Source: Opitutia bacterium
GTDB lineage: Bacteria; Verrucomicrobiota; Verrucomicrobiia; Opitutales; Opitutaceae
DNA: 64,000 bases
NCBI GenBank assembly: GCA_947478395.1
Contig: CANJVR010000002.1
Coordinates: forward strand, 544,001 to 608,000
Reading direction: 5' to 3'
Under the pieces are notes generated by a model, which was given only the letters and a program-made list of their open reading frames with translations, was not told the origin of the DNA and ran no database searches. Each line of letters starts with the position of its first letter. Position 1 is the first letter of the stretch. The position numbers and the translations under genes are program-made. Below, piece after piece: positions 4,372 through 58,531 of the stretch.

Positions 4372-4465
4372 GGCCGGACGCATCATCTCTAACGCGCCGA
4401 TCCGCGCCAAAGATCTGGCAACGAATTCGGAACCCGACGTCGCATGGAGAATAACGCGCCTTACC
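4372..4465. repeat. Degenerate REP doublet, family 1
   Basis: Arms match GGTAGGGCGCGTTATCCCTAACGCGCC at 21/27 and its reverse complement at 20/27 (manual count). Confidence 0.6.
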
Positions 4466-28856: not shown

Positions 28857-31487
28857 ATGCTCCGCCTCAATCTGCCACCCAATCTGGCCGCCGCCATCGT
28901 GCGCGACGCCGTCCCGATCAAGGTGGAACTTGATCTAGCCACCGTGCCGGCGCCCGGCTTGCTGCCCGTGCTCGCCGTGCTGCAACGGCTGTGTGGCGCG
29001 ACCCCGCCCGCGTTCATCCAGCTCACGCGCGCCCAACTCCGGGAAATCGCCACCGCCGCCGCCGACCAGCCGATTTTCCAGCACAACGGCCAGCTCGGCG
29101 TCTGGCGTCATGGCAATCTCCTCGGCGCGGACCCGGCGAAATCTGAAAACTCCAAAGCCCAATCTCCAAGCGCCAAACCCGGCGTTTCGTCCGCCCAACT
29201 TAAAACCCAAAACTCAAAACCCAAAACTGCGCCCAGTGGCGCCGCGCCGAGTCCACTGCTCGTCGACGGTTCTGAAAACTTCCTCGCCCTGACCCTGCCC
29301 TCGCCCGAGCACCCGCAATATGCCCGCGCCCTCGATCTGGTAAAATCCTCCGGCTTCGCCCTCGATCCGTCGTCACGCAAATGGTGGCTCCGCGACCGCC
29401 ACAAGACGCTCAATTTTTTAGCGACCTACGGCGAACGTCTTCGCGTTGGTTTCGACGCCGATTTCACGCCGAACTTCGAGCAGAACACCGCCCGGCTTCG
29501 TCCGGCCGAAATTATCGCCGACGCCGCCGAGACGGCCGGTGGTTACGCTGTCACGCTGGGCCTGCGCGCGGGCTCGGCCGACGACGGGTTGCTGCGTGAC
29601 GCGCTGGCAACCAACCGCCACTACCTCGAATCGAACGGCCACGTTTTCCTGCTCGAACCGGCGAAGCTCGCGCAGCTCGCCACCGCCCAACGCGCCCTCG
29701 CCGGCGATCCCACCGCGACAATCGCGCCGCGCCGTTCACAGCGGGTCAGCACCGCGCGCGTCGCCGAAGCGGAGGCGATCATCGAGGAACTGGCGCCTGG
29801 CTTTCAGCCGCCCGCGACCTGGCGGACGCGGAGCGCGGCCCTGCGCAACCTCACGTCGCTCGCGCGTGCCCCGATTCCCGCGCCGCTCGACGCCCAGCTG
29901 CGACCTTATCAGCGCCTCGGCGTCGCGTGGCTCTGGCATCTACATCGCTCGGAGTTGGCTGGTATTCTCGCCGACGAGATGGGTCTCGGAAAAACCCTGC
30001 AAGCGCTCGCGCTGCTCAGCGCAGTGCAGGTAGGGCGGGTTATCCCTAACCCGCCGGTTGTGCTCAGCGCACCCAACAGCTCCGAGTCGCTCCGGCGGGT
30101 TAGGGATAACCCGCCCTACCTGCAACCCAACCCGCAACCCGAAACCCAAAACCCGAAACCGCGACCAGCGTCGCTGGTGGTCGCGCCCGCCTCGCTGCTC
30201 GAAAACTGGCGCCGCGAAACGCTGCGCTTTGCACCGTCGCTCCGCGTGTTTGTGCATCACGGCGAACACCGGCTCCTCAGCGTGGCCGATTTGGCCGCGC
30301 ATGATCTCATTATCACGAGTTACGGCACGCTGACCCGCGATCAGGACCTTTTTGCGGCGGCCGAACTTACCGTGGTGATCGCCGACGAAGCCCAGCATAT
30401 CAAAAACCGTCGCTCCCAAAACGCCGCTGCCCTGCGTTCGCTGCGGGCGCGCAGCCGTTTTCTACTGACGGGCACGCCGCTCGAAAACTCGCTCGACGAT
30501 CTTCGTTCCCTCTTCGAATTCCTTTTGCCCGGTTACCTGACGCGGGTCCCGGCCGGCCTGCGCGGCGACGAACGCGCCTGGTACGATCAACGCCTGCGCG
30601 CCCAAACCGCGCCGTATATTCTCCGTCGCACTAAAGTGGCCGTCGCGCCTGAGCTGCCGGCTAAACTCGAGCAGATCATCTGGTGTGAATTCACGGCGGC
30701 GCAGGCCAAACTCTACCGTGAGACTCAGGAAGCGTCCGAGCGCCAGCTCCTGGACCTCGCCGCCGGGGGAGCGAGCGAAAGCCGGCTACAGTTCGCCGCC
30801 CTCACGCAACTCCTCCGCCTCCGCCAAATCTGCTGCGACCCGCGGTTGGTCGCGGCGGGACGCGCCGACTCCGAGGTAGGGCGCGTTATCCCTAACGCGC
30901 CGGTTGCACTCAGCGGACCAGAAACTCTCGAATCGCCCCGGCGGGTTAAGGATAACCCGCCCTACCTCGGCTCCGCCAAATTGGAGGCTTTCCGCGAACT
31001 CCTCGCCGAGGCGATCGACGATGGCCATCGGATCCTCGTTTTTTCTCAATTCACTTCCCTCCTCGCGCTGCTGCGGGACGAACTGGCCGCGCAGGAAATC
31101 GCGCATTGTTACCTCGACGGTTCGATGACGCCCAAAGCGCGTCAGGCCGAGGTCGACCGTTTTCAAGCTTCCGACGAGGTCCCGCTCTTTCTGCTCTCAC
31201 TCAAAGCGGGCGGCACCGGACTCAATCTCACCGGCGCCGACACGGTGATCCATTTTGATCCCTGGTGGAATCCGGCCGCGGAGGCCCAAGCGACGGATCG
31301 AGCGCACCGCATCGGCCAGACGCGCGCCGTGACGAGTTACAAACTCATCTGTGCCGGTTCCGTGGAGGAAAAAGTACTCGCGCTCCAAACCGAAAAACGC
31401 GCTCTGCTCGCCGATGTATTCGAGGCCAGCGACGCCATCGCCGGGAAACTCTCCCTTGGCGATCTCCGCGAGCTACTGCGGACCTAA
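28857..31487 (+). CDS. Snf2-family DEAD/H helicase/ATPase carrying in-frame repeat insertions
   Basis: LADEMGLGKT, DEAQ, LTGTPLEN, FSQF, GLNL, QATDRAHRIGQ. Confidence 0.9.
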   Translation: MLRLNLPPNLAAAIVRDAVPIKVELDLATVPAPGLLPVLAVLQRLCGATPPAFIQLTRAQLREIATAAADQPIFQHNGQLGVWRHGNLLGADPAKSENSKAQSPSAKPGVSSAQLKTQNSKPKTAPSGAAPSPLLVDGSENFLALTLPSPEHPQYARALDLVKSSGFALDPSSRKWWLRDRHKTLNFLATYGERLRVGFDADFTPNFEQNTARLRPAEIIADAAETAGGYAVTLGLRAGSADDGLLRDALATNRHYLESNGHVFLLEPAKLAQLATAQRALAGDPTATIAPRRSQRVSTARVAEAEAIIEELAPGFQPPATWRTRSAALRNLTSLARAPIPAPLDAQLRPYQRLGVAWLWHLHRSELAGILADEMGLGKTLQALALLSAVQVGRVIPNPPVVLSAPNSSESLRRVRDNPPYLQPNPQPETQNPKPRPASLVVAPASLLENWRRETLRFAPSLRVFVHHGEHRLLSVADLAAHDLIITSYGTLTRDQDLFAAAELTVVIADEAQHIKNRRSQNAAALRSLRARSRFLLTGTPLENSLDDLRSLFEFLLPGYLTRVPAGLRGDERAWYDQRLRAQTAPYILRRTKVAVAPELPAKLEQIIWCEFTAAQAKLYRETQEASERQLLDLAAGGASESRLQFAALTQLLRLRQICCDPRLVAAGRADSEVGRVIPNAPVALSGPETLESPRRVKDNPPYLGSAKLEAFRELLAEAIDDGHRILVFSQFTSLLALLRDELAAQEIAHCYLDGSMTPKARQAEVDRFQASDEVPLFLLSLKAGGTGLNLTGADTVIHFDPWWNPAAEAQATDRAHRIGQTRAVTSYKLICAGSVEEKVLALQTEKRALLADVFEASDAIAGKLSLGDLRELLRT
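29139..29228 (+). repeat. 7-mer tandem tracts inside Snf2 CDS
   Basis: AAAACTC CAAAGCC CAATCTC CAAGCGC CAAACCC ... CAACTTA AAACCCA AAACTCA AAACCCA. Confidence 0.7.
30025..30124. mobile_element. REP doublet (REPIN-like), family 1, in frame in Snf2, copy 1
   Basis: Perfect 33-bp inverted repeats 30025-30057 and 30092-30124; each arm is GTAG foot plus GGCGGGTTA/TAACCCGCC hairpin. Confidence 0.85.
30128..30162 (+). repeat. 7-mer tandem tract inside Snf2 CDS
   Basis: CAACCCG CAACCCG AAACCCA AAACCCG AAACCGC. Confidence 0.75.
30871..30970. mobile_element. REP doublet (REPIN-like), family 1, in frame in Snf2, copy 2
   Basis: 33-bp inverted repeats (30/33) at 30871-30903 and 30938-30970; spacer 22/34 identical to copy 1. 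Confidence 0.85.
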
Positions 31488-44543: not shown

Positions 44544-45488
44544 ATGCCCTGGACCCGCCGCCATCTCCTGACCATCGAGGAACTCAATCTCCATGAGATC
44601 GAGCAGATCCACACCACCGCGACCGCCTTCAAAAAAATTCTCGGCCGCAGCGTCAAAAAAGTTCCCGCCCTCCGCGGCAAGACTATCGTCAATCTCTTCC
44701 TCGAGCCCAGCACTCGCACGCGCATGGCTTTCGACATGGCGGCCAAGCGCCTCAGCGCCGACGTGATCGCCTTCGATGCCGCCAGCTCCAGCACGACGAA
44801 AGGCGAAACCCTGCGCGACACCGCGGAAAACATCCGCGCGCTCGGCGCCGACATGATCGTCATCCGGCACGCCGCGGCCGGCTCGCCGCTTTACCTTTCG
44901 CGCCTCCTCGACATCCCGATCATCAACGCGGGCGACGGCGCACATGAGCATCCGACGCAGGGTCTCCTCGACACGTTTACCATGATCGAGCACCTCGGCA
45001 GCCTGCGGGGCCGCAAGATCGTCATCCTTGGCGACATTCTTTTCAGCCGCGTGGCGCGCTCGAACATTCACGCGCTCACCAAGCTCGGCGCCGCGGTCAC
45101 TCTGGTCGGACCCTCGACCCTCGTCCCGGAATGGTTCACCGCGCTCGGCGTGAAAGTTTCGCACGATCTGCGCAGCGCGCTCGCCGACGCCGAGGTCGTG
45201 ATGCTGCTTCGCATCCAGCATGAACGGCAGTCGAGCGGTCATTTTCCGTCGCTGGGCGAATACACCAGTATGTTCGGTTTGAACAAAACCCGCGCGGGCT
45301 GGCTGAATCCCAAGGCGATCATCATGCATCCCGGCCCGATCAACCGTGGGGTGGAAATCGACAGCGAACTCGCCGACGGCCCGCGCAGTGTGATCCTGGA
45401 ACAAGTGACCAACGGGATCGCCGTTCGCATGGCGGTGCTTTACCTCTGCTCCGGCGGCCAACCCGAACACGTTATGCCAGCAGAATGA
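44544..45488 (+). CDS. pyrB: Aspartate carbamoyltransferase catalytic subunit
   Basis: EPSTRT, NAGDG.HEHPTQ, MHPGP. Confidence 0.95.
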   Translation: MPWTRRHLLTIEELNLHEIEQIHTTATAFKKILGRSVKKVPALRGKTIVNLFLEPSTRTRMAFDMAAKRLSADVIAFDAASSSTTKGETLRDTAENIRALGADMIVIRHAAAGSPLYLSRLLDIPIINAGDGAHEHPTQGLLDTFTMIEHLGSLRGRKIVILGDILFSRVARSNIHALTKLGAAVTLVGPSTLVPEWFTALGVKVSHDLRSALADAEVVMLLRIQHERQSSGHFPSLGEYTSMFGLNKTRAGWLNPKAIIMHPGPINRGVEIDSELADGPRSVILEQVTNGIAVRMAVLYLCSGGQPEHVMPAE

Positions 45489-45947
45489 ATGGCCACGAGG
45501 AGGCACGAGAAAGCACACCAAGGGCATGACCCCATATTCCATCAACCCACGGTGCGACGTCCTTCGCGAAACCCGTTTCGCCATTCACCGCTTCCATCGC
45601 CACGGCCACGTCGCAAAGATCGATGAAAACGCTCTGGCTCATCGACTGCGGAAGGCCGGGCTTTCCGTTCAACAGAAATTTCCAGTGAACGTTTTGGATA
45701 AAGATGGCACGCCGCTGGGAGAGTTTTTCGCCGACCTTGTTGTCGAGAATCGTCTCATCGTTGAGCTCAAGGCCGCACGGAGTGTCGTCGACCAGCATAT
45801 CGCACAATTGCTGGGCTATCTCCGGTTGTCTCGCCCCGAAACCGGCCGGCTCATTAATTTCGGGGCACCGGCCCTCTTTGTTGAAAAATATCTCATGTCC
45901 CACCCGCTCTGATTTTTGTGCCTTCTCGTGCCTCTTCGTGGCCATTC
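45487..45947. mobile_element. GxxExxY cassette bounded by 31-bp inverted repeats
   Basis: 45487-45517 vs reverse complement of 45917-45947: 29/31 identical, 9-nt periodic. Confidence 0.7.
45526..45912 (+). CDS. GxxExxY family PD-(D/E)xK nuclease-like protein, signature eroded
   Basis: ADL.VE..LIVELKA, H.AQLLGYL, LINFG; signature reads GHVAKID. Confidence 0.75.
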   Translation: MTPYSINPRCDVLRETRFAIHRFHRHGHVAKIDENALAHRLRKAGLSVQQKFPVNVLDKDGTPLGEFFADLVVENRLIVELKAARSVVDQHIAQLLGYLRLSRPETGRLINFGAPALFVEKYLMSHPL

Positions 45948-49418: not shown

Positions 49419-49508
49419 GTAGGGCGCGCTATCATTCACGAGTCGCTGAGACTTCGACCACCTGGGCCTCGGCGCCAAACCATCGGGATGGGAATAACGC
49501 GGCCTAAC
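49419..49508. repeat. Degenerate REP doublet, family 1
   Basis: GTAGGGCGCGCTATC ... GGGAATAACGCGGCCTAAC, 90-bp span like the Snf2 copies. Confidence 0.55.
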
Positions 49509-50159: not shown

Positions 50160-50230
50160 GTAGCGGCAGGCGTCTCTGCCTGCCGGGCTTCGGCGTCGTC
50201 GTTTCGGCAGGCAGGGACGCCTGCCGCTAC
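50160..50230. repeat. REP doublet, family 2, best-conserved copy
   Basis: GTAGCGGCAGGCGTCTCTGCCTGCCG and its inverse, 25/26. Confidence 0.8.
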
Positions 50231-57146: not shown

Positions 57147-57212
57147 CGGCAGGCGTCGCTACCTGCCGAAACGAAGACCCCGAACCCGGCAGACAAAGAC
57201 GCCTGCCGCTAC
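57147..57212. repeat. REP doublet, family 2 (opposite orientation)
   Basis: CGGCAGGCGTC...GACGCCTGCCGCTAC; spacer is reverse-complement homologue of the 50160 copy. Confidence 0.7.
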
Positions 57213-58391: not shown

Positions 58392-58455
58392 GTAGCGGCG
58401 GGCGTCTCGGCCCGCCGGGTTCGGCGTCCTCGTCGCCGGCCACGCCTTTGCTTAA
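58392..58455. repeat. REP doublet, family 2, right arm degraded
   Basis: GTAGCGGCGGGCGTCTCGGCCCGCCG plus homologous spacer. Confidence 0.6.
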
Positions 58456-58531
58456 ATCGGTCTAGCCACTGCGCGCGCGGCATCCAGCCGGCGCGTTAAA
58501 CTTAACGCGGCCTGCCCTTTTCGAAATCCCT

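Follow-up and report, generated by a model that had tools for sequence, protein, structure and literature searches.

In-frame GTAG REP doublets in two variable loops of an Opitutaceae Snf2-family helicase, and a candidate RAYT transposase between mreB and mreC

Within a 64,000-nucleotide stretch of the Opitutia bacterium assembly GCA_947478395.1 (contig CANJVR010000002.1, positions 544,001 to 608,000 of the forward strand; hereafter the window, with positions counted from its first letter), a gene for a Snf2-family helicase contains two homologous palindromic units, each running from GTAG to CTAC and each adding 30 residues to the protein in frame. The locus raises the question of what these units are, how they arrived, and how a helicase gene comes to carry two of them. 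The source genome of the window (G000, 3.3 Mb) was compared with genomes of relatives (other G numbers), loci cut from genomes (L numbers), homologous proteins (P numbers), and conspecific sequencing runs (X7, X9, X14, X15, and X16). From direct observation of a repeat family, its copy number and placement, a transposase gene flanked by the repeat, a frame rule, and a patchy presence in orthologues, we conclude with good though not complete confidence that the units are GTAG-type repetitive extragenic palindromic (REP) sequences paired as doublets (REPINs), likely inserted by a REP-associated tyrosine transposase (RAYT) encoded between mreB and mreC, and likely persisting as harmless, given a length divisible by three (3n) and a site in a predicted disordered loop.

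The gene is a single open frame (Table 1), and the coordinates, 90-nt length, codon-boundary start, and translations that a first-pass annotation had given for both units were reproduced. That annotation had also described inverted arms of 33 bp with an internal 9-bp hairpin; arm complementarity proved to be 100% in copy 1 and 91% in copy 2, and the two copies are 84% identical over 94 nt. Folding indicates that each REP arm consists of an unpaired GTAG followed by a 9-bp stem with a 4-nt loop, and the units as a whole are exceptionally stable (z = -13.0 for copy 1 and -8.0 for copy 2, with 0 of 200 shuffles equally stable). Both 27-nt arms of doublet 1 show 0 mismatches to the family consensus, as do those of doublet 2 to consensus variants. 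The host protein combines the Pfam domains SNF2-rel_dom and Helicase_C with motifs I-VI, and all motifs are intact, as had been claimed, at positions 373 (DEMGLGKT), 441, 510 (DEAQ), 538, 727, 753, 781, 800, and 811, the inserts beginning at 392 and 674. Its best match in the PDB is the Snf2/Rad54-family helicase 1z63 (E = 1.8e-78), and it scores under the cut-off of every named NCBIfam subfamily. Orthologues are present in 41 of 41 relatives searched, and named homologues belong to Opitutaceae and Verrucomicrobiota, in keeping with an Opitutaceae host. The metagenomes that contain the gene come from freshwater, lake, and biofilm samples, with no RNA data set listed among them.

That the doublets are REPIN-type pairs of a genome-wide GTAG REP, as first proposed, is borne out by a genome scan, which yields 41 doublets and 51 single arms in G000; a reversed-genome control gave 1 match at 6 mismatches and none below. 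The same pattern was found in 55 of 201 family genomes, with 0 in the control. Specifically, the GTAG positions that form the foot of this REP type are conserved in 66-69 of 70 arms, 49 arms lie within 1 mismatch of the consensus, and 32 of the 41 doublets measure 88-90 bp, the characteristic spacing of the inverted pair. The 70 good arms fall into two types, A and B, distinguished at position 9/22, which is C/G in 37/39 and G/C in 30/31 of these arms. Among 25 well-preserved doublets, 22 are A+B heterodimers and only 2 are B+B. Copy 2 in the Snf2 gene is the usual A+B pair and copy 1 the rare B+B pair; therefore, what had been interpreted as a compensatory pair change specific to the left arm of copy 2 is one of two family-wide arm types. 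The self-complementary outer flanks are likewise partly a family property: AG precedes GTAG in 48 of 70 arms, equivalent to CT right after CTAC, so 2 of the 5 complementary flank bases are explained by the consensus. A full set of five was seen solely in the two Snf2 copies among the 25 well-preserved doublets, and the remaining three bases are odd. No consistent direct repeat was found at the flanks of the 41 doublets, which instead fit the inverted AG/CT consensus. Assignment to a miniature inverted-repeat transposable element or to a Rickettsia palindromic element, with terminal inverted repeats, a target-site duplication, and an insertion-sequence transposase, was rejected, since there is no consistent direct repeat and the linked enzyme is an HUH-type RAYT.

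The length and placement of the family bear on the first-pass proposal of a frame-preserving REPIN family that colonises protein loops. In G000 the distance from GTAG to CTAC is 89 bp in 20 doublets, 90 bp in 9, 88 bp in 3, and 74-96 bp in the others; among relatives, doublets span 70-96 bp overall, with 70-83 bp in G126, 92 bp in G185, and 90 bp in 7 of the 9 exact doublets of G089. Placement was counted against genes predicted by a home-made hexamer model (2588 genes on 85% of the genome), which initially called four doublets intragenic; one of these, at C8:85475, was dropped, the element appearing to lie upstream of the true gene start. Three of 41 doublets are thus intragenic, the two in Snf2 and a 78-bp copy in a GH20-like gene, and 38 are extragenic. 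Moreover, 34 of the 37 doublets first scored as non-genic sit within 50 bp of an upstream stop, that is, at gene 3' ends. The purL gene of G000 holds one in-frame single arm, and a HrpA gene has also been entered by this REP. Exact doublets were sought in ten relatives rich in this REP and found in 7, 46 in all; 6 of the 46 are confidently coding, all of 3n length, and 0 of 27 non-3n doublets are coding, possible N-terminal or signal-peptide copies having been scored, conservatively, as non-coding. The hosts in relatives include an M20 peptidase, a DUF3418 protein, an Fe-S/CCG protein, a solute-binding protein, and an aminotransferase. Pooled over G000 and these relatives, 9 of 9 intragenic doublets are 3n, against 22 of 78 others (Fisher p = 4e-5, indicative because kin genomes are not independent; p = 0.02 in G000 alone). 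A strict 3n length is therefore found only among intragenic survivors of a family whose modal length is 89 bp, which points to selection on survivors rather than family design, and the proposal of a frame-preserving family was not upheld.

Two side observations concern coding copies. The purL gene (G000 C9:67557-71810, L088) contains several other repeat-like peptides besides the REP arm. In L190, L209, and L206 (each at 1501-1590), the open frame of a 90-bp doublet leads straight into a hydrophobic, signal-peptide-like stretch, and these copies are possible N-terminal extensions, judging from their reading frames.

A RAYT gene flanked by this REP, which the first-pass annotation had envisaged, does exist. 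A REP-RAYT-REP cassette lies between mreB and mreC, both identified from sequence motifs, at G000 C5:141809-142334 (L086:1510-2035). The G000 allele carries one internal TAA stop and is 58% identical to the intact orthologue of G066, whose Y1 locus, in a scan of the Y1 loci of ten relatives, was found bracketed by perfect arms 525 bp apart; the arms in G000 are equally spaced. The G066 protein passes the NCBIfam model NF047646 (REP_Tyr_transpos, REP-associated tyrosine transposase) with 83.2 bits against a cut-off of 80 and aligns with E. coli TnpA-REP (4er8, E = 1.2e-7), the HUH motif (HLH) and the Tyr being matched. Related RAYT-like proteins occur in 76 of 201 genomes. Among the best 30 RAYT loci, the top 8 all have this REP, 7 of those beside mreB and/or mreC; beyond these, two more have this REP or a weak arm, and most others have different GTAG hairpins or none. 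The mreB-mreC address is shared by 7 genomes, which belong to several genera. The stop varies among four conspecific runs: X7 and X15 have it, X9 lacks it and has an open frame, and X16 also lacks it but is shifted by a 1-bp insertion. The loss of the enzyme is therefore recent or still segregating, which fits the 49 arms within one mismatch of the consensus. This RAYT is likely the transposase of the family.

The sole PF01797 match in G000, a 325-aa Y1 transposase at C1:347100, was considered as the cognate enzyme and rejected, there being no copy of this REP nearby; that Pfam search missed the real cassette, which was located through a relative. About 200 bp at the start of the 325-aa Y1 gene are duplicated in tandem (C1:347100-347426, L001), with an AT-rich open reading frame adjoining, and a C-terminal fragment of another RAYT-like gene lies directly after the end of a housekeeping gene (C6:112951-113112, L092).

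Where the REP has entered the Snf2 protein, the protein is variable. The first-pass annotation placed both inserts in variable loops, and indeed the alignment with 1z63 breaks at query residues 390-438 and 670-706, where 1z63 has links of a few residues, and the AlphaFold model (mean predicted local distance difference test, pLDDT, 78.4) shows coil with pLDDT <50 at 401-432 and 668-702. In a comparison of 29 orthologue loci from relatives, most lack the peptides, as the alignment check proposed at the outset would have it: the doublet is present in 1 of 28 at site 1 (G015) and in 1 of 28 at site 2 (G007), and many carry unrelated repeat-like peptides in the same loops. Among the best 120 homologues (query included), this peptide was found in 12 of 103 parsed at site 1 and in 9 of 115 at site 2, with 17 homologues having it at either site and 4 at both; a bare 9-residue loop is seen at site 2 in 33 of the 115. 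A pattern-match scan of 80 metagenomic loci found 0 with this peptide in either loop. On a tree computed with the loops excluded, the 13 carriers at site 1 require 11 changes (as few in 17 of 300 shuffles), and the 9 carriers at site 2 require 9 and are as scattered as shuffles. A single clade of ten site-2 carriers was rejected by the approximately unbiased (AU) test (p-AU = 0.00026, 29-row subset), and P0020 has both inserts, yet is nested among insert-free homologues. Repeated gain is the simpler reading of these scattered carriers. In the GH20-like gene, the REP lies in one loop in 5 of 30 parsed orthologues, from three genera, and no fixed target sequence is shared by the empty GH20 loops among the 7 compared. 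Thus, presence or absence at orthologous sites, the mark of mobility, is patchy in both the Snf2 and the GH20-like orthologues, with no clean empty site between close strains.

The same loops have also been entered by other sequences. A second, unrelated short repeat of heptamer-like units follows doublet 1 directly and recurs in the N-terminal part of the gene (Table 1); this family has 33 genomic sites, 13 of them in predicted genes, encodes KTQNSKP-like peptides, and has a coding share far above that of the REP. Its presence in the same Snf2 gene indicates that it is the loops, and not the REP, to which the tolerance is due. Both Snf2 loops are insertion hotspots, hit by this and other repeat families. 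Flaus et al. in 2006 are said to have named 'minor' and 'major' insertion sites of Snf2 proteins, labels that would apply to these loops. The GH20-like doublet of G015 (L177) pairs a consensus left arm with a right arm that is 4 bases off the consensus and still self-complementary; from its sequence, this odd arm perhaps derives from a related REP family.

The arms themselves have changed little at synonymous sites. In the 4 carrier pairs with DNA that could be compared, arms differ at 1 of 11, 0 of 9, 2 of 10, and 0 of 11 four-fold sites, and the host genes at 48%, 50%, 46%, and 26%. For G000 vs G015, 1 of 11 four-fold sites in the arms stands against 48% in the host (P = 0.008), with spacers differing at 13 of 36 nt; for G120 vs G203, in the GH20-like gene, it is 0 of 11 against 26% (P = 0.034), with spacers differing at 11 of 24 nt. 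Moreover, the rare codons GTA, CCT, and AGG (usage 5%, 8%, and 1%) are kept in the arms. Two carrier pairs have unrelated spacers and therefore probably represent separate insertions. For the two pairs with related but diverged spacers, the arms may have been refreshed by conversion or RAYT strand exchange, a sister copy may have re-inserted, or the hairpin may be under selection. TnpA-REP is reported to recombine REP sites in vitro (PMC3333891), which makes arm refreshing plausible by analogy. Most likely, the arms owe their near-perfect state to recent insertion, or to recombination or conversion between REP copies, and not to a protein function.

Together these data suggest a route by which the Snf2 gene acquired its inserts. 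By analogy with the TnpA-REP biochemistry of E. coli and Stenotrophomonas, including the reported cleavage at CT (PMC3333891, PMC8266576), and in keeping with the CT flank bias at 48 of 70 arms, the RAYT would bind a single-stranded GTAG-footed hairpin, cut at a CT dinucleotide, and transfer the strand in trans. Judging from the census, most insertions would land just behind stop codons, and those inside genes would be purged unless they lie in the one stop-free frame, are 3n long, and fall in a tolerant loop. The Snf2 loops tolerate inserts and would therefore have taken up copies of this and other repeat families again and again; the peptides of 30 residues are predicted to be translated, unstructured passengers. 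Several points weigh against this account. Translation of the inserts is a prediction, and the activity of the RAYT on this REP is deduced from co-location only. No insertion was seen with a clean empty site that would define the true ends of the unit and its target, and loop lengths around the inserts vary. The homologue list was ranked by likeness to an insert-bearing query and is possibly enriched in carriers, the group submitted to the AU test was picked after the first tree was seen, and change counts cannot separate gains from losses. Low pLDDT is also expected from the thin alignment in the loops, and the gene model was home-made, with one of its four intragenic calls (C8:85475) discarded. 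Finally, the arms keep rare synonymous codons beyond what passive decay would leave, and a neutral view must add recent insertion or conversion.

Two other explanations were weighed. One, to which we give a low but appreciable probability, is that RAYT or REP recombination keeps rewriting both Snf2 loops across the Opitutaceae, swapping spacers and refreshing arms so that the loops become replaceable cassettes, and that the in-gene hairpins may tune helicase expression; if true, a domesticated transposase would be an ongoing, site-recurrent source of protein-loop variation. Somewhat less probable, in our estimate, is selection on the intragenic hairpins for a role in DNA or mRNA, such as ribosome or polymerase pausing, tuning of mRNA decay, or a binding site for RAYT or another protein. 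Arm conservation at four-fold sites while spacers diverge, the retention of rare codons, and the confinement of the 5-bp complementary flanks to the two Snf2 copies would all fit such a role, but most orthologues have no insert or have another repeat in the same loop, the two carrier pairs with unrelated spacers look independently inserted in a comparison of only 4 pairs, and the differences between carrier arms are often the A/B and C/T variants of the family itself, as conversion would yield. The idea that frame preservation is a design feature of a family aimed at protein loops, with coding insertion as its niche, as the first-pass annotation supposed, draws on a frame that is stop-free from GTAG on both strands, on the 90-bp length of 7 of 9 doublets in G089, on the repeated hits to the same loops, and on the intragenic share of the second short-repeat family (13 of 33). 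We regard it as improbable: the mode in G000 is 89 bp with 38 of 41 doublets extragenic, G126 and G185 have other lengths, the arm sequence by itself accounts for the stop-free frame, TAG or TAA being present in both other frames of the left arm, and the 7 empty GH20 loops compared share no fixed target sequence.

Two further explanations would take the inserts out of the protein altogether. Removal before or after translation, whether by precise excision from the DNA, by processing of the RNA, or by splicing of the peptide, or else silence of the gene, might be imagined from the strong long hairpins and from the excision of REPINs seen in Pseudomonas population reads (PMC3116915). This is very improbable. 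All 9 intragenic doublets are strictly 3n, which argues for read-through; none of the 15 joints listed, out of 20 from four DNA runs in which contigs drop rare variants, is a precise excision; and each of the 4 members of the protein cluster has an intact gene. Misassembly caused by the repeats, which the first-pass annotation had named as a possible undoing of its claims, has a probability close to nil. Repeats do break contigs, and no contig covers the entire stretch, some junction pieces entering the element by <31 nt. The spacers are unique, however, and contigs from runs of four studies pass from unique flank into the elements (X14 at 29700-30104, X14/X16 at 30877-31300). Moreover, the other three cluster members differ solely at residues 77, 337, 479, and 822, outside both inserts, and P0002 and G015 have related inserts at these very residues.

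Insertion by the mreB-mreC RAYT, followed by harmless persistence, also finds parallels in known systems. Rickettsia palindromic elements had been put forward as the coding precedent, but a nearer one is provided by Opitutus terrae. As described by Di Nocera, De Gregorio, and Rocco (2013, PMC3733652), GTAG REP dimers inside its open reading frames encode 20-30 aa, double insertions in one gene occur in uvrA, a ligase, and purL, helicase and repair genes are among the hosts, neutrality in flexible loops was proposed, and a table with 70 O. terrae rows includes HrpA and PurL. In-frame GTAG REP dimers, double insertions included, have thus been known from O. terrae since 2013. The two systems share a related host organism, the GTAG foot with hairpin, and the entry of both into HrpA and PurL. 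They appear to differ in REP sequence, as no tabulated O. terrae peptide matches, three 'VGR' matches being other families; the peptides of GTAG-17 to GTAG-20 differ from the present one in all rows compared, a comparison of peptides rather than of stem-loop consensus. In addition, O. terrae REPs in genes of the same category are mostly at different sites, whereas in the present case insertion recurs in the same loops across a family. The O. terrae table has no entry for Snf2 by name. Its Oter_3506, an 848-aa protein labelled 'Ser/Thr kinase' with a REP at 625-640, is possibly the Snf2 orthologue, on two indirect hints: the orthologue P0171 is named 'serine/threonine protein kinase', and site 2 begins at 631-656 in 15 homologues of 840-856 aa. 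No O. terrae entry was among the best 120 of either protein search, and a degenerate pattern scan of genome contigs gave 2 unrelated Acidobacteriota matches.

The REPIN-RAYT systems (REPtron, TnpA-REP) of E. coli, Pseudomonas, and Stenotrophomonas (PMC3333891, PMC8266576, PMC3116915) resemble the present one in their inverted REP pairs with a spacer, heterodimers of two types, a single REP-flanked RAYT at a fixed place, copies just behind stops, CT beside the element ends, and, for group 3 REPs, a perfect short stem directly after GTAG. Unlike them, the present system has a verrucomicrobial host, ~90 loci rather than hundreds, and a visible intragenic fraction, and is described here from sequence. 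As with Rickettsia palindromic elements (PMC10969869), mobile palindromes have become in-frame parts of unrelated genes, to which they add a recurrent peptide; those elements are ~150 bp long and nearly half intragenic, whereas here 3 of 41 doublets are intragenic and a candidate transposase has been identified. The REP arm sequences and the start of the peptide were not found in the literature searched, the O. terrae consensus figure and supplements S4/S5 lying outside the comparison, and the REP-RAYT pair reported here, whose address between mreB and mreC is fixed in Opitutaceae, is apparently undescribed so far.

These results give numbers to a point that is usually argued verbally, namely that the in-frame length of coding REPs is a product of selection (9/9 vs 22/78). 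Furthermore, repeated occupation of the loops maps where the Snf2 motor tolerates 30-residue inserts, and since open and broken RAYT alleles coexist in one species, REP dynamics in the presence and in the absence of the enzyme can be compared in nature. Annotation is affected as well: repeats of this sort make proteins look longer and interrupt metagenome contigs within core genes.

Table 1. Repeat features of the window and the Snf2-family gene that hosts the inserts
Feature	Position in window	Strand	Remarks
Snf2-family helicase gene, host of inserts	28857..31487	+	876 aa, every helicase motif intact
REP doublet 1 (REPIN), 90 bp, type B+B	30030..30119	+	residues 392-421, between motifs I and Ia
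Doublet 1 plus 5-bp complementary outer flanks	30025..30124		perfect 33-bp inverted repeat
REP doublet 2 (REPIN), 90 bp, canonical type A+B	30876..30965	+	residues 674-703, between RQICCDP and SAKL
Second, unrelated short repeat (C/A-rich heptamer-like units)	30137..30161	+	directly after doublet 1, same loop
Second copy of heptamer-like family	29205..29222	+	N-terminal low-confidence loop of Snf2 gene, pLDDT <50 at 93-127
Degenerate intergenic doublet, same REP family, 92 bp	4373..4464		6 and 7 mismatches per arm; G000 C2:548373-548464
Degenerate intergenic single arm, same REP family	49419..49445	+	6 mismatches, near chance limit; C2:593419
Degenerate intergenic single arm, same REP family	58489..58515	-	6 mismatches, near chance limit; C2:602515

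The window contains other repeats besides. A second, more abundant family of GTAG-footed palindromes is represented at 50160-50230, 57162-57187, and 58392-58417; its commonest 18-mer occurs 86 times, once in a gene, the family gives 229 matches at ≤4 mismatches, and no cognate transposase was found for it. Finally, a 31-bp inverted repeat at 45487-45947, 94% complementary and with arms 399 nt apart, is, from its structure, possibly another small element.

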